Of a stretch of DNA of 64,000 nt, positions 20,832 through 48,308 are shown in pieces. The stretch's first letter is position 1; every line of letters starts with the position of its first letter. A program made the position numbers and the translations under genes. The notes beneath the pieces are model-generated. The model ran no database searches. It was not told where the DNA came from and saw nothing but the letters and a program-made list of their open reading frames with translations. The DNA comes from an uncultured beta proteobacterium (GTDB lineage Bacteria > Pseudomonadota > Gammaproteobacteria > Burkholderiales > Rhodocyclaceae), in contig OW818671.1 of assembly GCA_942493065.1 (NCBI GenBank), forward strand, positions 766,104 through 830,103. The letters are read 5' to 3'.

Positions 20832-22310
20832 TTAGAGTGCTTTTCGTAGGTTAACCGGCGGAATGTTCAGGGATTCACGATACTTGGCAACGGTACGTCG
20901 CGCAACCACAATTCCCTGTTCGCCGAGGACTTCCGCGATTTTGGCGTCGGAAAGCGGCTTGTGACCGTCTTCGACGCTCACCAGCTGCTTGATCAGCGCC
21001 CGGATCGCGGTGGATGACGCCGCGCCGCCGGTATCGGTGGCGACGTGGCTGCCAAAAAAGTATTTGAGTTCGTAGACGCCGCGCGGACTCGCCAGATATT
21101 TCTGCGTTGTCACGCGCGAGATAGTCGATTCGTGCAGTTCAACTGTATCGGCAATTTCACGCAAAGTAAGTGGCCGCATCGCCACCTCGCCATGATCGAA
21201 GAAGGCGCGCTGCCGGTCGACAATCGCCTGCGAAACACGTGCGATGGTATCGAAACGCTGCTGCACGTTCTTGATCAGCCACTTGGCTTCCTGCAACTGA
21301 CCTGACAGATTGCCGCCACCATTGCTGCGCTGACGCCGTAGCAGATCGGCATACAGGCGGTTGATGCGCAGGCGCGGCATGGCTTCCTGATTGAGTTGCA
21401 CCGTCCAGCTACCGCGATGCTTCCTGACGAAGACATCGGGCACGATGTACCGCGTATCCATCGGCGAGAACTGCGCGCCCGGACGTGGATTGAGCGAACG
21501 AATCAGTTCCTGTGCCTGGCGCAGGGCCTCATCTTCGCAACCCAGCGCCTTGCGGATGCGCACGTAATCGCGATTGGCCAGTTGTTCGAGATGATCCTTG
21601 ACGATCGCCACGGCCAGCGCTTGCGTCGGGCTGGGCTGCAGGTTGAGCAGCTGCAGCAGCAGGCATTCGCGCGGATTGCGCGCGCCGATGCCGGGAGGGT
21701 CAAGGCTTTGCAGATGTTTCAGGGCGATCTGCAGGTCGTCGATGACCTCATCCGGTTCGCCGTAAAACTCTTCCGGCACCACCTCAACCAGCTCTTCCAG
21801 CGTCTGCGCCAGGTAGCCGTCGTCACTCAGTGCCTCGACCAGAAACGCCACCAGCATGCGCTCGCGGTGCGAAAGCTGCGTGAGCGCCAGTTGCTCGATC
21901 ATGTGGTCGCGCAGGCTAATGGCGGCGGCCTGCAACTCGCCGGCATCAGCCTCGCTTTCATCGTTGGGGTCGCGCGGCGTGCGCGTGCTACCGCTGCCCG
22001 ACCAGTCGTGTCCTTCATCCTGCGACCAGTCGTTGCCGGATTCCTGGCTGTCGCGCGACTCCTGTGCATCCCGTTGCTCAGAAGTGTTGTTGCCCTGTTC
22101 GTCGTTGCGATGCGACAGCGCATCGTTGGTCGTGGAAAACACCCCCACGTCGCCCGGCTCCTCGCGTTCCAGCAGCGGGTTTTCCTGCAGGGCCTGTTCG
22201 ATTTCCTGATTGAGTTCCAGCGACGAGAGTTGCAACAATCGAATCGACTGCTGCAACTGGGGCGTCAGGGCGAGATGCTGGGAAAGCCGGAGCTGGAGGG
22301 TGGGTTTCAC
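20832..22310 (-). CDS. rpoN: RNA polymerase sigma-54 factor
   Basis: [23 protein letters not shown], RpoN box [13 protein letters not shown] start. Confidence 0.97.
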
Positions 22311-41007: not shown

Positions 41008-41031
41008 AAATGTCGGCGCTGGTGAGACGGC
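41008..41031 (+). repeat. Dispersed 24-bp motif copy 14 (fills 27-bp gap between convergent genes)
   Basis: AAATGTCGGCGCTGGTGAGACGGC. Confidence 0.9.
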
Positions 41032-41032
41032 A

Positions 41033-44000
41033 CTACCGCCTGCGCAAATCCAGCGTACTCGGATACTCGGGGTTGATTTCCTCTTCCACCGGCGCCATCG
41101 GCCCGATGGTCGTGCCTTCGGGCAGGAAGGTGTCCAGCGCGCCGACCCACGGCGGTGGCGTGTAGCTGCCAATGGTGTGGCCCTCGCCCTGAAAACGGAT
41201 GTGGCGACGCGCCTCGGCTTCGTAGGCGTTGACCGGGAAGCTGTCGTAGTTGCGGCCACCCGGGTGCATGACCTGGTAGGTGCAGCCGCCGATGGCCTTG
41301 TTGTTCCACAGGTCGACGATGTCGAAGACCAGTGGCGACTGCACACCGATGGTCGGGTGCATCGCCGAAGGCGGTTGCCAGGCGCGGTAGCGCACGCTGG
41401 CGATGTATTCGCCGTGCGTGCCGGTATTGGCGAGCGGCACGCGGCGGCCGTTGCAGGTCAGCGCATGGCGGCCATCGGTCAGGCCGTTGACCTTGACCTG
41501 CACGCGCTCGATGGATGAATCGACATAGCGCGCCGTGCCGAGGCCGGTCGCTTCCTCGCCGAGCACATGCCAGGGCTCGATGGCGGCACGTACTTCGAGG
41601 GCGATGTCGCCGAGCTGGATGCCGCCGTAGCGCGGAAAACGGAATTCGAGGAAGGGGGCGAACCAGTCGAGCTGGAAGGGATAGCCGGCCTCGTTAAGCT
41701 CGGTCACCACTTGCTTGAGATCAGCCCACAGGTGATGCGGCATCATCCAGCGGTCATGCAGCGCTGTGCCCCAATGCACCAGCGGCTTGGCATAGGGCTT
41801 GGCCCAGAAGCGTGCGACGAGCGCGCGCACCAAGAGCATCTGGGCAAGGCTCATGTGCGCATGCGGCGGCATTTCGAAGCCACGAAACTCGACCAGCCCC
41901 TGCCGACCGGCGGCGGAATCCGGCGAATAGAGCTTGTCGATGCAGAACTCGGTGCGATGCGTATTGCCGGTCAGGTCGGTGAGCATGTGGCGGAACAGGC
42001 GGTCGACCAGCCAGGGCTGCGGCGTTTCCTCGCCCGCCTTGGGTAACTGCTGGAAGGCGATTTCCAGCTCGTAGAGAATTTCCGGGCGACCTTCATCGAC
42101 GCGCGGCGCCTGACTGGTTGGGCCGATGAACAGGCCGCTAAACAGATAGGACAGGCTCGGGTGGTGCTGCCAGTAGGTCAGCAGGCTGCGCAGCAGATCG
42201 GGGCGACGCAGGAATGGGCTGTCGGCCGGTGTGGCACCGCCGAGGGTGACATGGTTGCCGCCGCCCGTGCCGCTGTGGCGGCCGTCGAGCATGAACTTCT
42301 CGGTGCCGAGGCGCGACTGGCGCGCTTCTTCGTAGAGCGTCAGCGTGGTGGCTTCGAGTTCTTCCCAGTTCTTTGCCGGATGGATGTTGACCTCGATGAC
42401 GCCGGGGTCGGGCGTGACCAGCAGTTTTTCGAGGCGGCCATCGGAAGGCGGCGCATAGCCTTCGATCACCACCGGTAACCTGAGGGCCGCACAGGTGCAT
42501 TCGATGGCGGCGATCAGGTCGAGCGCCTGATCGAGGCGCGGCGTGGGCGGCAGGAAGACGTAGAGACAGCCGTCGCGCGGTTCGATACACAGGGCGGTGC
42601 GTGGCACCTCGGCCGCCTTGGCGCTGCTGATGGCCTTGGCACGTGCAGCGGCTTCTTCATGAAAATCGGCCAGTGGCTCGGTGGGGGCAAAAGGATCAAC
42701 TTCCGTGGCGATCTCCAGCTTGTCCTCATCGACCGCCGCGACTGAATTGAGCGGCAGGCGTAGGCCGAGCGGCGAATCACCCTGAATGAGATAGAGACGT
42801 TCGCGACGGAATTTCCACGGCGCGCTATGCCAGCCTTCCTTCCATGCCAGCGGGAGGACGAAACCGGTGGGCGTATCAAGTCCGCGCGAGAGGATCTCGG
42901 CGAGGTTGCGTCGTCCGAGCAGGTCGAGCGGATCGGCCCGCAGCGCCGCTTCGGCAAGATCGAGATTCTCCGGCACCGTGGCTTCACGCAGCAAGGCGGC
43001 GAGGGCATCCTCGTAGGCAGGCTGCACGCATTGCGCGGCCAGACCGAGATGGCGCGCCAGGGTTTCGGCAAAACGCTGCGCCTCGGCCACGCCATGGCCG
43101 TAGTCCTGGCCCGGATCGGCGAGCCACTGCTCGTCTTTCCACACCGGCACGCCGTCCTTGCGCCAGAAGATGCCGAGTGCCCAGCGCGGCAGCGGCTCGC
43201 CCGGATACCATTTGCCCTGCGCATTGTGCAGCAGCGCGCCGGTGGCAAAGCGGTCTTTCAGGCGGCGCGCCAGCACTTCGGCGCGTTCGCGCTTGTGCTT
43301 GCCGAGCGCAGCGATGGTCCATTCCGGCGCCTCCATGTCGTCAATCGAGACGAAGGTCGGCTCGCCGCCCTGCGTCAGGCGCACGTCCATTGCTTGCAGC
43401 CTGGTGTCGACCATGCGGCCGAGCGCACGGATGTGTGCCCACTGTTCGTCGGTGTAGGGCTTGGTGACGCGCGGGTCTTCCTTGAAGCGCGTGACGGTGT
43501 TGCTGAAGGCAAAGTCGACCTCGCATGGATCAGTGAGGCCGGCAATCGGCGCGGCCGAGGACGGATGCGGCGTGCAGGCGAGCGGAATATGACCTTCGCC
43601 GGCGAAGAGACCCGAGGTCGGGTCGAGGCCGACCCAGCCGGCGCCGGGTATGAAAACTTCGGTCCACGCATGCAGGTCAGTGAAGTCGGCTTCCGGGCCG
43701 GAGGGGCCGTCGAGCGATTTTTCGTCGGCGGTGAGCTGGACGAGGTAGCCGGAGACGAAGCGCGCGGCCAAGCCCAGATGCCGCAGGATCTGCACCAGCA
43801 GCCAAGCCGAATCGCGACAGGAACCGAGCTTGCGTTGCAGCGTTTCCTCGCAGCTTTGCACGCCGGGTTCGAGGCGAATGGTGTAGCCGATGTGCTGTTG
43901 CAGATTGCGGTTGATGTCGACAAGGAAATCGACGATCTGTTGCGGCTTGCGTTCAATGCTGGCCAGATAGGCACCCAGCAACGGCTCAGGCGTTTCCTTT

Positions 44001-44356
44001 TCGAGGTAGGGCGTGAGTTCCTTGGCGAGCGCTTCGGGATAGGCGAAAGGCCACTGGTCGGCATATTCCTCGACGAAGAAGTCGAAGGGGTTGATGACGG
44101 TGAGATCGGCGATCACCTCGACATCGATCAACAGCTCGGTCGCGCGTTCGGGGAAGACCAGCCGCGCCAGATAGTTGCCGAACGGATCCTGCTGCCAGTT
44201 GATGAAATGCTTTTCCGGCCGGATCTTCAGGCTGTAGGACAGGATCGGCGTGCGGCTGTGGGCGGCGGGCTTCAACCGCACCACATGCGGACTCAGGCTG
44301 ACCGGGCGATCAAACTTGTAATGCGTGGTGTGGCGAATGGCAACGTGGATGGACAT
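41033..44356 (-). CDS. Transglutaminase-like + DUF2126 (amidoligase-like) fusion protein
   Basis: Triad GSCRDSAWLLV / DLHAWTEV / WVGLDPT; DUF2126 motifs LTQGGEPTF, VTPDPGVIEVN, GTGGGNH, GPTSQAPRVDE. Confidence 0.88.
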   Translation of the reverse strand: MSIHVAIRHTTHYKFDRPVSLSPHVVRLKPAAHSRTPILSYSLKIRPEKHFINWQQDPFGNYLARLVFPERATELLIDVEVIADLTVINPFDFFVEEYADQWPFAYPEALAKELTPYLEKETPEPLLGAYLASIERKPQQIVDFLVDINRNLQQHIGYTIRLEPGVQSCEETLQRKLGSCRDSAWLLVQILRHLGLAARFVSGYLVQLTADEKSLDGPSGPEADFTDLHAWTEVFIPGAGWVGLDPTSGLFAGEGHIPLACTPHPSSAAPIAGLTDPCEVDFAFSNTVTRFKEDPRVTKPYTDEQWAHIRALGRMVDTRLQAMDVRLTQGGEPTFVSIDDMEAPEWTIAALGKHKRERAEVLARRLKDRFATGALLHNAQGKWYPGEPLPRWALGIFWRKDGVPVWKDEQWLADPGQDYGHGVAEAQRFAETLARHLGLAAQCVQPAYEDALAALLREATVPENLDLAEAALRADPLDLLGRRNLAEILSRGLDTPTGFVLPLAWKEGWHSAPWKFRRERLYLIQGDSPLGLRLPLNSVAAVDEDKLEIATEVDPFAPTEPLADFHEEAAARAKAISSAKAAEVPRTALCIEPRDGCLYVFLPPTPRLDQALDLIAAIECTCAALRLPVVIEGYAPPSDGRLEKLLVTPDPGVIEVNIHPAKNWEELEATTLTLYEEARQSRLGTEKFMLDGRHSGTGGGNHVTLGGATPADSPFLRRPDLLRSLLTYWQHHPSLSYLFSGLFIGPTSQAPRVDEGRPEILYELEIAFQQLPKAGEETPQPWLVDRLFRHMLTDLTGNTHRTEFCIDKLYSPDSAAGRQGLVEFRGFEMPPHAHMSLAQMLLVRALVARFWAKPYAKPLVHWGTALHDRWMMPHHLWADLKQVVTELNEAGYPFQLDWFAPFLEFRFPRYGGIQLGDIALEVRAAIEPWHVLGEEATGLGTARYVDSSIERVQVKVNGLTDGRHALTCNGRRVPLANTGTHGEYIASVRYRAWQPPSAMHPTIGVQSPLVFDIVDLWNNKAIGGCTYQVMHPGGRNYDSFPVNAYEAEARRHIRFQGEGHTIGSYTPPPWVGALDTFLPEGTTIGPMAPVEEEINPEYPSTLDLRRR

Positions 44357-44390
44357 GCAGTTCTCGCAGCGGTGTGGACGCTACGAGCAC

Positions 44391-44404
44391 GCAAGCATCG
44401 TGCC
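44391..44404 (-). promoter_or_regulatory. Putative sigma54 promoter for the transglutaminase-DUF2126 gene
   Basis: Minus strand GGCACG-ATGC-TTGC, GG-N10-GC, 34 nt upstream of ATG. Confidence 0.6.
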
Positions 44405-44416
44405 TTGCCAGCGTGC

Positions 44417-45148
44417 TTACTGGTATTCCCAGTCGAAATGGGGCAATTGCTCCAGCGCCTGAAACAGGCCTTGGCTCCATTTCTCGGATAGTTCACGTGC
44501 AAACGGGTCGTCTTCGCGGAAATACAGGTGCTTGCCTTCCTCGAAGCTATCGCGGCGATAGATCAGGAGTTCCACCGGCGGGCCGACGGTGAGGTTGGAG
44601 CGAATCGTCGAGTTCATCGATACCAGCGCGCAGCGCGCAGCCGGCTCTAGCGTCACATCGCGCTTGATCACGCGATCAAGGATCGGCTTGCCATACTTGA
44701 TCTCGCCGATCTGCAGGAAGGGGTGCTCGGACGATTCATGGATGTAATTGCCCTGCGGATAGATCATGAAGATCTCGGGCGCCTGGCCAATAATCTGGCC
44801 GGCGAGGATGAAAGTGGCTTCGAAGTTGGTGGTGGCCGTATCGCGGCTGGCATGCAGCTTCTGCACCTGCGTGCTGACGATGCCCAGATAGTCGGCAGCC
44901 TCCTGCATGGTCGCCACCGTGGTCAGATTAGGCACCATGCCGGCGACGATATCGCTATTGATTTTTTTGACCACCGCCTGTGTCGTGGCCAGGTTGCCCG
45001 CTGACAGCAGCGTAAAAAAGCGCACGCCCGGCCAGACAAAGGGGAACATCTTCGAATAGATGCTGACGTTGTCCGTGCCCGCATTCGTGCGCGAATCGGA
45101 ACACAGGACGAGGCCGTCATTGACGTGGATAGCGAGGCAATAAGTCAT
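44417..45148 (-). CDS. Anbu proteasome-beta-like (Ntn hydrolase) protein
   Basis: MTYC with N-terminal Thr, SDSRTNAG.DN.S.YSKM, AGNLATTQ, QIGE.KYGKPILDR, NLTVGPP. Confidence 0.88.
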   Translation of the reverse strand: MTYCLAIHVNDGLVLCSDSRTNAGTDNVSIYSKMFPFVWPGVRFFTLLSAGNLATTQAVVKKINSDIVAGMVPNLTTVATMQEAADYLGIVSTQVQKLHASRDTATTNFEATFILAGQIIGQAPEIFMIYPQGNYIHESSEHPFLQIGEIKYGKPILDRVIKRDVTLEPAARCALVSMNSTIRSNLTVGPPVELLIYRRDSFEEGKHLYFREDDPFARELSEKWSQGLFQALEQLPHFDWEYQ

Positions 45149-45257
45149 GGAGGCGTGGCGCAGGACAATTTGGATCGAGGGCGAATTGTATGCGCTAGGA
45201 ACGGCAGCGCGGCTACCGGAGGCGATCGAACAATGAGCGAATACACCGATTTGATGG

Positions 45258-45274
45258 CTGGCGCGTTTGTTGCA
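45258..45274 (+). promoter_or_regulatory. Putative sigma54 promoter for ATP-grasp/alpha-E genes
   Basis: CTGGCGCG-TTTG-TTGCA, GG-N10-GC. Confidence 0.6.
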
Positions 45275-45285
45275 GAGCAACAGGT

Positions 45286-46746
45286 ATGACCCTCGAACTG
45301 CACAACTATCCCCAGCCCAACACCTATGATGAGCTGCTCGATGAGTGTCAGCAGCCGCGGCCTGCCGCGCGCGTCCTCTTCGATTACGTCAATCGCCTCG
45401 GCGCCAAGGAACTCGCCGCCCGCCGCGAGAGCGTCGACGCCGCCATCATGGCCATGGGCATTACCTTTACCGTTTATAGCGACGCCGGAAACATCGACCG
45501 CGCATGGCCTTTCGACATCATCCCGCGCACCTTGTCGAGCAAGGAATGGGCACGTATCGATGCCGGCCTCAAGCAGCGCCTGACCGCCCTCAACCTGTTC
45601 ATCAACGATCTTTACAACGAGCAGAAAATCGTCAGGGACGGCATTTTCCCGATCGAGGTACTGGAAGGTTCGAAGAACTTTCGTGCTCAATGCAAGGGCA
45701 TGACGCCCCGTTTTGGGGTGTGGGCGCATGTGTGCGGCACCGATCTGGTGCGCGACAAGGATGGCACTGTCTATGTGCTTGAGGACAATCTGCGCGTGCC
45801 TTCCGGCGTTTCCTACATGCTGGAAAACCGCCAGCTGATGAAGCGGCTGTTCCCCGAACTGTTCAAGTCGAGTGACATCCTGCCGGTCGACGATTACCCG
45901 ACGCAGTTGTACGACACCCTCGCCGCCCTGTCACCGCGCGACAGTGAGCGCCCGGTGATTGCGGTGCTCACGCCCGGCATCTACAACTCGGCCTATTTCG
46001 AGCACAGCTATCTGGCGCAGAAGATGGGTGCCATCCTCGTCGAAGGTTCCGATCTGGTCGTCAAGGATGACGACTGTGTCTACATGAAGACGATTTCCGG
46101 CCTGAGTCGTGTTGATGTCATCTACCGCCGCATCGACGACGACTTTCTCGACCCCGAGGCCTTCCGGCCCGATTCCGCGCTCGGCGTACCCGGCCTGATG
46201 CGCGCCTGGCGTGCCGGCAATGTCGGTATCGCCAATGCGCCCGGCGCCGGTGTGGCGGACGACAAGGTGGTGTATACCTTCGTGCCGCAGATCATCAAGT
46301 ACTACCTCGACGAAGAGCCGATCCTGCCCAACGTACCGAGCTGGATGTGTATGTACGAGGACCAGCGCGAGCACGTCCTCGCCAACCTCGACAAGCTGGT
46401 GGTCAAGCCGGCCAACGAGTCGGGCGGCTACGGCATGCTGATCGGCCCGCGCGCCAGTCCCGAGGAGCGCGCGCAGTTCGCCGACCTGATTCGCGAAAAT
46501 CCACGCAACTACATGGCCCAGCCGACGCTGTCGATTTCCACCGCGCCGACGCTGATCGGCGACAAGCTGGCGCCGCGCCATCTCGACCTGCGCCCCTTCG
46601 TGCTGCAGTCGGACAGGCTCTACGCCACCACTGGCGGCCTGACGCGCGTCGCCCTGCGCGAAGGCTCGCTGATCGTCAATTCCTCGCAGGGAGGCGGCAG
46701 CAAGGACACCTGGATCATCAACACCGATGACGGGGAGGCCACCTGA
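45286..46746 (+). CDS. Circularly permuted type 2 ATP-grasp protein (DUF404)
   Basis: [63 protein letters not shown]. Confidence 0.92.
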
Positions 46747-47720
46747 TGCTCTCGCGTGTCGCCGAAAATCTCTACTGGCTGGGCCGCTATCTCGAACGTG
46801 CCGAGAACACCGCCCGCTTCATCAACTCCACCACGCAGGTGTTGCTCGACCTGCCGAAGGATTCCGCCTTCGGCTGGGACGTGCTGCTCAAGGTCGCCGG
46901 TCTCGACGAGATTTTCAGCGAACACCATCCACATTTGGCGCAAGCCGATGAAGACAGCATCGTGCGCTTCCTCGTCGAGGACGAAAAGAACCCGAGTTCG
47001 ATCCTCTCCGGCATCCACAACGCCCGCGAAAATGCGCGCACGGTGCGTGAAGTGCTGCCGATGGAGCTATGGGAGCGCATCAACAGCCTCTACCTGTATG
47101 CGCGCGACAATGCGGCGCGTGCCAGCGAAGGACGTGGCCCGCGTATCGAGGTGCTACAGGGCGTAATCGGCCGGCGTGAATCGATCATCGGCCTGCTCAC
47201 CGGCTCGATGAGTCAGGATGTTGCCTACCAGTTCATCAAGCTCGGCCGCAACATCGAGCGTGCCGACATGACGACGCGCATTATCGACGTCAATTCCGCC
47301 GTGCGCCTGCCGCGCGATCCAGCGCTAGCAGCGGTCGCCACCGAACGCATGTGGATGAGCACGCTCAACGGCCTCTCCGCCTACCAGATGTATCGCCGCC
47401 ATGTCAGCGTGCATGTACGCGCCAACGAGGTGGTTAACTACCTGCTGAAGAATTCGCACTTCCCGCGCACGGTGCTGCATTGCCTCGCCGAGGTCGAAGG
47501 CTGCCTATCCGTGCTGCCCGAGCACAAGGACGCCATGAAGAAAGTGCGCCAGGCCTGGCGGCGTGTCGAGAGCATGCAGTTGAACGATCTCAAGCCGACG
47601 GTATTGCACGAGTATCTCGATCAGGTGCAAAGCGACCTCGGCGAAGTCCATACCGCCGTGGCCCGGCAGTATTTCCACTTGCACCACGAAAATGTCGGCG
47701 CTGGCGGGATGGCACAGTAA
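46746..47720 (+). CDS. Alpha-E domain protein (DUF403)
   Basis: [23 protein letters not shown]; LGR.IERADMT.R; overlaps ATP-grasp stop. Confidence 0.92.
   Translation: MLSRVAENLYWLGRYLERAENTARFINSTTQVLLDLPKDSAFGWDVLLKVAGLDEIFSEHHPHLAQADEDSIVRFLVEDEKNPSSILSGIHNARENARTVREVLPMELWERINSLYLYARDNAARASEGRGPRIEVLQGVIGRRESIIGLLTGSMSQDVAYQFIKLGRNIERADMTTRIIDVNSAVRLPRDPALAAVATERMWMSTLNGLSAYQMYRRHVSVHVRANEVVNYLLKNSHFPRTVLHCLAEVEGCLSVLPEHKDAMKKVRQAWRRVESMQLNDLKPTVLHEYLDQVQSDLGEVHTAVARQYFHLHHENVGAGGMAQ
47690..47713 (+). repeat. Dispersed 24-bp motif copy 15 (alpha-E 3' end)
   Basis: AAATGTCGGCGCTGGCGGGATGGC; encodes NVGAGGMA. Confidence 0.88.
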
Positions 47721-48308
47721 TCAGGCGTTCAGCATGCGCTCCACGTAGCGCGCGATCAGGTCGACTTCAAGATTCACCAACGCGCCGGGCTTCAGGCGCT
47801 TGAGCGTCGTCACCTGCACGGTGTGCGGGATCAGGTTGATCGCGAACTCGCGGCCTTTCACTTTATTCGTCGTCAGCGAGACGCCATCAATGGTGATCGA
47901 TCCCTTGCGGGCGATGTATTTCGCCAGCTTCTTCGGCGCCCGGATAATCAGCAAATGCGATTCGCCGATCGGTTCGAAAGTAATCACCTCGCCGACGCCA
48001 TCGACATGCCCGGAGACCAGATGGCCGCCGATGAAATCAGACAGGCGCATCGCCTTTTCCAGATTCACTTCGCCGCCCGGCACATCCAGGCCGACGGTGC
48101 AGTCGAGCGTCTCCTTCGAGACATCGATCTGGTAGCTGGTTCTTTTCTTGGCGATGACCGTCAGGCAGACGCCATTGTGGGCGATCGAATCGCCGAGCGC
48201 GACATCCTTGAGATTCAGGCCGGGTGCCTCGACGGTCAGGCGCACGCCTTGTTCGAGGGGCTGCAACTGGGTGATCTTGCCGGTGGTGGCGACGATGCCG
48301 GTAAACAT
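47721..48308 (-). CDS. ribC: Riboflavin synthase (alpha chain)
   Basis: MFTGIV, GDSIAHNGVCLTV, GGHLVSGHVDG, KGSITIDGVSLT, VNLEVD.IARYVER. Confidence 0.95.
   Translation of the reverse strand: MFTGIVATTGKITQLQPLEQGVRLTVEAPGLNLKDVALGDSIAHNGVCLTVIAKKRTSYQIDVSKETLDCTVGLDVPGGEVNLEKAMRLSDFIGGHLVSGHVDGVGEVITFEPIGESHLLIIRAPKKLAKYIARKGSITIDGVSLTTNKVKGREFAINLIPHTVQVTTLKRLKPGALVNLEVDLIARYVERMLNA

Follow-up and report, generated by a model that had tools for sequence, protein, structure and literature searches.

The surroundings in which Anbu, a proteasome-like N-terminal-threonine hydrolase, has been best described are those of a canonical operon of four collinear genes, which encode an ATP-grasp protein (COG2308), an Alpha-E protein (COG2307), a short transglutaminase-like protein (COG1305) and Anbu itself, as in the PA1733 region of P. 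aeruginosa, in P. putida PP_2685-2688 and in Y. bercovieri (Valas & Bourne 2008, PMC3235984; Fuchs 2017, PMC5666114; Piasecka 2018, PMC6376114). Here, we analyze a locus with the same four protein families at positions 41033-47720 of a 64,000-nucleotide stretch of DNA (the window) from an uncultured Rhodocyclaceae bacterium (GCA_942493065.1, contig OW818671.1, 766,104 to 830,103). Two further cluster types, both containing a fusion of a transglutaminase-like domain with DUF2126 (TGase-DUF2126), are close to it. In the collinear betaproteobacterial form, the genes run ATP-grasp, Alpha-E, Anbu, TGase-DUF2126, with an ATP-grasp of a lineage that we call B and an Anbu of a clade that we call Y (L025, L035-L037, L095, L114, L119). 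In the DUF2126-type cluster, which makes up the majority of our wide sample, an optional pair of lineage-A ATP-grasp and Alpha-E genes is followed by TGase-DUF2126, a lineage-C ATP-grasp, Alpha-E and a short TGase. The latter is presumably the system of Iyer et al. 2009 (Mol Biosyst 5:1636), who reportedly outlined a widespread potential peptide-tagging system in which a permuted ATP-grasp and a permuted glutamine-synthetase (GS)-like ligase occur together with a new helical domain and a peptidase of the NTN-hydrolase type. The gist of that tagging proposal is restated in later papers (PMC3495828, PMC5666114, PMC6376114).

The window locus shares with the canonical operon its four protein families, an Anbu of the Anbu-1 type with Thr1, Asp17 and Lys32, and a likely link to nitrogen limitation through sigma54. 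Unlike in that operon, its TGase is fused to an 830-amino-acid (aa) DUF2126 and lies downstream of Anbu, and its ATP-grasp and Alpha-E genes (the ligase pair) are on the opposite strand, giving a divergent variant of the arrangement; moreover, the ligase pair is of lineage A rather than B, and Anbu falls in a sister clade, X, with Tyr at position 30 of the S1 pocket. With the collinear form it has in common all four components and the position of Anbu directly upstream of TGase-DUF2126, and many collinear copies carry a sigma54-like motif before ATP-grasp; that form, however, runs in one direction with lineages B and Y, where the window is divergent with A and X. From the DUF2126-type cluster, in which an A-type ligase pair likewise accompanies the fusion, the window differs in that the C-type pair and the short TGase are missing and Anbu sits between the two units. 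Since 2008-2009, the substrate and role of the widespread Anbu/ATP-grasp/Alpha-E/transglutaminase system have been a puzzle, which this locus does not solve. We infer that the locus is an ordinary member of that puzzle, namely an ATP-dependent system for amide ligation and hydrolysis, serving either the tagging or the turnover of peptides.

Four intact single-copy genes

The ORF listing and Pfam searches agree on four intact genes. The TGase-DUF2126 gene (41033..44356, 1107 aa) and the Anbu gene (44417..45148, 243 aa) lie on the minus strand, 60 base pairs (bp) apart; on the plus strand, across a divergent intergenic region of 137 bp, lie the genes for a circularly permuted ATP-grasp protein (45286..46746, 486 aa) and Alpha-E (46746..47720, 324 aa), the stop codon of the former overlapping the ATG of the latter by 1 nucleotide (nt). 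When compared with 69-176 relatives, the window proteins retain all columns that are at least 95% conserved, save in DUF2126, where 226/228 are kept. On the basis of these alignments, there is no sign of degeneration in any of the four genes.

The host genome is a single contig of 3.05 Mb and 99.6% complete. Six-frame searches found one copy each of Alpha-E, DUF2126, CP_ATPgrasp_2 and Anbu genome-wide, all at this locus, and found neither a short TGase nor a second ligase pair anywhere else in this genome. The sole additional transglutaminase core belongs to an unrelated 649-aa TgpA-like multi-pass membrane protein. An earlier note on this DNA had described the canonical operon in terms that agree with the literature (PMC3235984, PMC6376114), and had named a separate canonical operon elsewhere in the genome as the finding that would speak against its reading of the locus; since all four genes are single-copy, that objection fails. 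The gene content, the divergent layout, the N-terminal Thr of Anbu and the intact Cys-His-Asp triad that it reported are likewise borne out by Pfam, the ORFs and conserved residues, and its phrase “minimal complete” is a fair description of four genes that are the only members of their families in the genome.

The Anbu reading frame is open upstream to a TTG at 45280 (44417-45280). We place the actual start at the ATG at 45148 (MTYCLAIHV...), because homologues and the Anbu chains in the PDB align from there; the mature protein therefore starts with its catalytic Thr after removal of Met, and has no propeptide. Its Pfam match, to the Proteasome family, has a weak score, as is usual for Anbu, and its PDB matches are Anbu proteins only, headed by the Anbu-1 consensus design 5LOY (5e-71) and followed by 5NYJ, 5LOX, 5NYF and 5NYW. 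All 35/35 conserved columns are kept, including Thr1, Asp17 and Lys32, which as T2, D18 and K33 in Met1 numbering are conserved across 69 aligned Anbu sequences. The residues of its S1 pocket (T20, Y30, S48, L52, T55) resemble those of the hydrophobic/amphiphilic pocket of Pa-Anbu (T20, F30, T48, L52, S55) rather than the basic pocket of Anbu-2 (PMC5666114), which in the 3 Anbu-2-like sequences of our sample reads I20/A30/R52/R55. With no propeptide, Asp17 and Lys32 in place, a non-basic S1 pocket and Anbu-1 proteins as its nearest structures, the window Anbu is of the Anbu-1 subtype. An open-ring (lock-washer) dodecamer, a further feature of this subtype, has been described only in the Anbu proteins Pa, Yb and Hy and in the consensus design. 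A maximum-likelihood (ML) tree divides the sequences into two clades, X and Y (support 100/100), and places the window Anbu in the smaller clade X (16/41 rows), whose members have Tyr in place of Phe at S1-pocket position 30 and are otherwise Anbu-1-like. Some clusters hold more than one Anbu gene: in L028 (G159), L029 (G256) and L034 (G233) two paralogues occur in the order Anbu-X, ATP-grasp(B), Alpha-E, Anbu-Y, TGase-DUF2126 on one strand, and L043 (G234) has a tandem pair of Y-type genes.

The ATP-grasp protein is matched over its full length by PF14403/PF04174 (CP_ATPgrasp_2, 1.8e-166; the second family, 4.8e-140) and keeps 43/43 conserved columns. Its close homologue in the PDB, 3N6X (3e-156), is a putative glutathionylspermidine synthase from structural genomics, itself without assigned function. 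An ML tree of ATP-grasp proteins resolves three lineages, of which the window protein belongs to A. Lineage A, at least 65% identical to the window protein, occurs in 21/301 genomes of the window's order in addition to the window genome; lineage B, about 51-52% identical, is found in canonical and collinear Anbu operons; and lineage C, about 37% identical, has short TGases as its partners and lies downstream of DUF2126. The Alpha-E protein matches PF04168 (1.6e-83), keeps 12/12 conserved columns and has two invariant ER motifs (E17-R18 and E171-R172). Its AlphaFold2 model is all-alpha and confident, with a predicted local distance difference test (pLDDT) score of 93.7, but neither Foldseek (best E 0.21) nor a profile search of PDB sequences found a relative in the PDB, and the model therefore gives no mechanistic clue.

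The fusion protein is matched by Bact_transglu_N (2.4e-27), Transglut_core (8.7e-18) and, over its full length, DUF2126 (E=0, 1292 bits). The N-terminal ~275 aa form a transglutaminase-like cysteine enzyme with 23/23 conserved columns and an intact triad of Cys180, His229 and Asp245; the Foldseek match of this part (8e-7) is 3ISR, a putative cysteine protease from Cytophaga hutchinsonii, which has no assigned function either. Residues 276-1105 form DUF2126, a putative amidoligase, in which Pfam at E<=10 yielded no further family and for which we found no solved relative in the PDB. The family is large, with >8000 proteins at E<=1e-20, and the three-domain architecture is present in 120/120 of the best homologues. 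Its Pfam description and, reportedly, Iyer et al. 2009 predict a GS-like (COOH-NH2) amidoligase fold for DUF2126. A putative role of DUF2126 as a second ligase is consistent with the evidence. A literature search found no papers that mention DUF2126.

Anbu beside TGase-DUF2126 in the order and across phyla

The earlier note had read the locus as a special merger, in which a canonical Anbu operon and a DUF2126 cluster had been joined into an unusual, minimal version of a pathway. A neighbourhood survey bears directly on this. Our queries against 301 genomes from the same order as the window (completeness at least 90%) were DUF2126, the window Anbu and the window ATP-grasp; DUF2126 is present in 111/301 and Anbu in 153/301. 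The two are no more than 15 kb apart in at least 63/301 genomes, and in at least 38 of these Anbu is on the same strand and directly upstream of TGase-DUF2126, as in the window. The remainder have the reversed order (at least 4), a divergent order (at least 6), a seven-gene row (at least 6, all in one genus) or a looser arrangement with the two genes 2.6-10.6 kb apart (at least 9); as the crossing of DUF2126 and Anbu coordinates covered 150 of the 172 Anbu matches, these counts are lower bounds. In other words, the combination is among the commonest in the order, and the layouts, read from tblastn maps of 41 fetched regions, show that the commonest of all is the collinear four-gene operon of ATP-grasp, Alpha-E, Anbu and TGase-DUF2126.

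The same holds across phyla. Our wide sample consisted of 80 TGase-DUF2126 loci in species-representative genomes of Proteobacteria, Bacteroidota, Acidobacteriota, Verrucomicrobiota, Planctomycetota and other phyla. In most of these, TGase-DUF2126 has an ATP-grasp, an Alpha-E and a short TGase of its own downstream, which confirms the earlier statement that DUF2126 loci usually have their own ATP-grasp and Alpha-E, and adds the short TGase to it. Anbu was found within 10 kb in 28/80 loci and directly upstream in 14/80. Anbu-2-like genes, 26-28% identical to the window Anbu, adjoin TGase-DUF2126 clusters in one deltaproteobacterial metagenome-assembled genome and two Bacteroidota (L062, L094, L123), so that the linkage reaches the second Anbu subtype. 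Anbu beside TGase-DUF2126 is thus a recurrent, known arrangement, and only the back-to-back order of the window is unusual: the exact order, with TGase-DUF2126 and Anbu on one strand and ATP-grasp and Alpha-E diverging from them, was seen only in the 5 genus members that carry the module and in one uncultured betaproteobacterium (L060).

Gene order around the X-type Anbu is free, while the partners stay the same. In 16/16 cases, X-type Anbu adjoins an A-type pair or TGase-DUF2126, in many gene orders: diverging from an A-type pair whose Alpha-E is in some cases followed by TGase-DUF2126 and in others not (G059, G072, G049, G036, G283, G270); preceding TGase-DUF2126 while the A-type pair is convergent or at a distance of 26 kb (L061, L078, G273); or convergent with an A-type pair that is itself divergent from TGase-DUF2126 (L093, L108, L111). 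Linkage that outlasts such shuffling gives good reason to think that the four gene products act together. The membership of the window ATP-grasp in lineage A and of its Anbu in clade X furthermore points to an old co-travelling set rather than a recent merger. We therefore consider it likely that the locus is an intact single-copy module of an old and widespread lineage, in which an A-type pair, an X-type Anbu and TGase-DUF2126 are linked in free order, and that its divergent order arose by rearrangement in the lineage of this genus.

The merger reading does account for some of what is seen. The two cluster types occur both apart and in tandem, as in a row of genus g20 (L040) that reads ATP-grasp, Alpha-E, TGase-DUF2126, ATP-grasp, Alpha-E, short TGase, Anbu, the stretch from TGase-DUF2126 to the short TGase being the majority type of the wide sample; and the window lacks the short TGase and second ligase pair, with none supplied from elsewhere in its genome. 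However, four-gene sets with Anbu and TGase-DUF2126 are too common, both in the order and in the wide sample, for the combination to be special, and the ligase pair does not come from a canonical Anbu operon: it is of lineage A, which elsewhere heads TGase-DUF2126 clusters, and not of lineage B, and the Anbu belongs to a separate clade. We hence regard a merger as quite improbable. Of the earlier interpretation as a whole, an intact, minimal and single-copy set stands, while the special hybrid does not. The A, B and C ligase lineages, together with the X and Y Anbu clades, could guide the choice of homologues for biochemical comparison.

Sigma54-like motifs and possible function

Two sequences resembling the -24/-12 elements of sigma54 promoters precede the genes of the locus. 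By pattern matching, TGGCGCGTTTGTTGCA (45259..45274, plus strand) ends 11 nt before the ATG of ATP-grasp, and AGGCACGATGCTTGCG (44390..44405, minus strand) lies ~35 nt upstream of the ATG of TGase-DUF2126. The former has one mismatch to TGGCACG-N4-TTGCW, and its GG and GTTTGTTGC are invariant in 5/5 genus members; in the latter, GGCACG..TTGC is kept in 5/5 genus members, whereas the surrounding intergenic spacer has diverged and varies in length. The pattern as such is found 18 times in the whole window against 16.7 expected, which is chance level, and the case for these two sites is therefore one of position and conservation only. At 19 loci of the order, the ATP-grasp gene has a motif of this class upstream. 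In the wide sample, where we scanned 200 nt upstream of each gene with a background expectation of 0.014 per 200 nt, the motif precedes 5/18 A-type and 7/21 B-type ATP-grasp genes (12/39 together) and 8/77 TGase-DUF2126 genes; the counts were 0/49 for C-type ATP-grasp, 0/87 for Alpha-E and 0/29 for Anbu. An rpoN gene (Sigma54_DBD, 1.2e-65) is located in the window at ~20841-21302 on the minus strand (G000:C1:786944-787405), ~20 kb from the module. In addition, P. putida, the only species for which this is known, responds to nitrogen limitation with strong induction of its canonical Anbu operon (PMC3235984, note added in proof; PMC8050072, Table 2). Motif conservation, enrichment before ligase genes, the presence of rpoN and the induction in P. 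putida together suggest that the ligase genes are probably under sigma54, nitrogen-type control, and the two conserved motifs point to a concrete, testable induction condition.

Given the distance of 11 nt between the -12 element and the ATG of ATP-grasp, the predicted transcript would be leaderless or nearly so; the sole purine run in this region (AGG; 45259-45288) is 1 nt from the ATG. In G014, a 48-nt insertion with AGGAAAC lies between the sigma54-like promoter and this ATG. Upstream of the Anbu ATG, no Shine-Dalgarno-like sequence was found in the 5 genus members (45149-45180 in the window and the equivalents in L018-L021), the window bases being CGCCTCC. Alignment of the divergent intergenic region, whose mean column identity is 56%, reveals a conserved block, ATTGTATGCGCT (45185..45196), that reads TACAAT on the minus strand and is kept in 4-5 genus members; it may be the -10 element of an Anbu promoter or a regulator site. 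In G151 (L050, 7429-10200), TGase-DUF2126 and an A-type ATP-grasp gene diverge across a 510-bp gap that has no match to an Anbu remnant and contains TGGCACAAAGGCTGCT and two TGCACCA motifs resembling NtrC half-sites.

These observations allow a scheme for how the four products may work. Under nitrogen limitation, sigma54 and an NtrC-type activator would turn on the ligase genes. ATP-grasp and Alpha-E would then form an amide bond via an acyl-phosphate intermediate, placing an amino acid or short peptide onto a protein or peptide acceptor, and DUF2126 would carry out a second ATP-dependent amidoligase step. The adduct would be trimmed or transferred by the fused Cys-His-Asp domain, and Anbu would strip it off or degrade the marked substrate. 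We put forward such tagging of proteins or peptides, coupled to removal or degradation, tentatively and with somewhat less than even confidence. Published results that touch on individual steps are that an operon ATP-grasp liberates Pi from ATP (PMC6376114) and that reversal of peptide tags has been predicted for TGL domains encoded alongside ATP-grasp and Alpha-E (PMC3495828).

Several points weigh against this scheme and against treating the four genes as one unit. An AlphaFold2 prediction for the 1107-aa fusion from 32 homologues (70-93% identity) reached a pLDDT of only 61, too poor a model to confirm the GS-like fold; with Foldseek on this model, the glutamine synthetases 4S17 and 9N4X reach only E 0.16-0.6 and probability 0.35-0.6. 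We know of no substrate or product for any member of the system. Some genomes have TGase-DUF2126 without Anbu (e.g., G095, G142, G022, G052), so that the ligase core can evidently do without it. Co-regulation, on which the earlier note made its reading depend, is partly supported by the conserved sigma54-like motifs before ATP-grasp and TGase-DUF2126, but no such motif precedes Anbu; lacking also a Shine-Dalgarno sequence, Anbu may be separately regulated. Purified Anbu proteins failed to show peptidase activity or to associate stably with the other products of the operon (PMC6376114), Fuchs et al. favoured a plain protease role (PMC5666114), and a literature search found no paper after 2018 that assigns a function to Anbu.

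Some of these same points would fit an Anbu that acts as an independent nitrogen-starvation or housekeeping protease and neighbours the ligases by history rather than through a shared pathway: its own promoter region is without a sigma54 motif, unlike those of the two flanking units, no physical complex with operon partners was found (PMC6376114), and some genomes carry TGase-DUF2126 without it. However, the linkage of Anbu to ATP-grasp, Alpha-E and TGase survives many rearrangements in several phyla, which is a classic sign of functional coupling, and within the genus the four genes are jointly present or absent. We therefore think it very doubtful that Anbu stands apart.

A different use of the same chemistry would be the building and mobilization of a non-ribosomal peptide or polymer for nitrogen storage or salvage, similar to cyanophycin or poly-glutamate, in which the ligases build, TGase and Anbu break down, and no protein is tagged. 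Two predicted ATP-dependent amide ligases alongside two hydrolase-type enzymes would suit this, as would the sigma54-like motifs before the ligase genes, the nitrogen-limitation response of the P. putida operon and the lack of a small tag gene at the locus, where the gaps measure only 60 and 137 bp. Nevertheless, induction by nitrogen starvation suits breakdown or salvage more than storage synthesis, the ring of proteasome-like sites in Anbu points to polypeptide substrates (PMC5666114), and no polymer has been tied to these genes; such a polymer pathway seems rather unlikely to us. A further reading, which we offer as speculation and likewise hold to be improbable, is that the A-type pair, the X-type Anbu with Tyr30 and TGase-DUF2126 constitute a subsystem in its own right, co-evolving and acting on another substrate than the canonical operon does. 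The genus would then have three transcription units, two under sigma54 (the ligases, one of them nearly leaderless) and one, that of Anbu, not under sigma54. If so, nitrogen starvation would switch ligation on while the hydrolase would be constitutive.

The module within its genus

Within the genus, the layout and the ribE-dsbD flank are the same in all 5/5 carriers (G017, G011, G005, G014 and the window). Five further genus mates, each at least 99% complete, have neither Alpha-E nor Anbu, and in the 3 of these that the order-level draw included, DUF2126 and an A-type ATP-grasp are missing as well; the module thus looks all-or-none within the genus. We compared the flanks as an empty-site test, and in the module-free mates the TPM genes of the left flank are 237-282 kb away from ribE-dsbD on the right. 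No clean boundary of an insertion can be traced, and the module lies at a synteny break. With one copy per gene in a 3-Mb genome and module-free sister species for comparison, the locus offers a clean, minimal genetic background.

The components differ in how far they have diverged among carriers. The DUF2126 proteins of G005 (L020, 4794-8096) and G014 (L021, 6096-9422) are only 61-62% identical to that of the window (41033-44356), while the ATP-grasp proteins of the same genomes are 87-89% and the Anbu proteins 78-80% identical to their window counterparts. The window DUF2126 is closer to those of G273 (70%), from another family, and L060 (77%) than to those of these two genus mates. By these identities, it looks as if some members of the genus may have exchanged their TGase-DUF2126 gene in situ, at a conserved position and with the sigma54 motif retained.

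Both ends of the module run into convergent genes, and no terminator-like hairpin was found at either junction (47718-47723, 41025-41033). The stop codon of Alpha-E directly abuts that of ribE with zero spacer (47718-47723), and the stop codon of TGase-DUF2126 is 7 bp from the end of a 238-aa ORF without a Pfam match (41025-41033).

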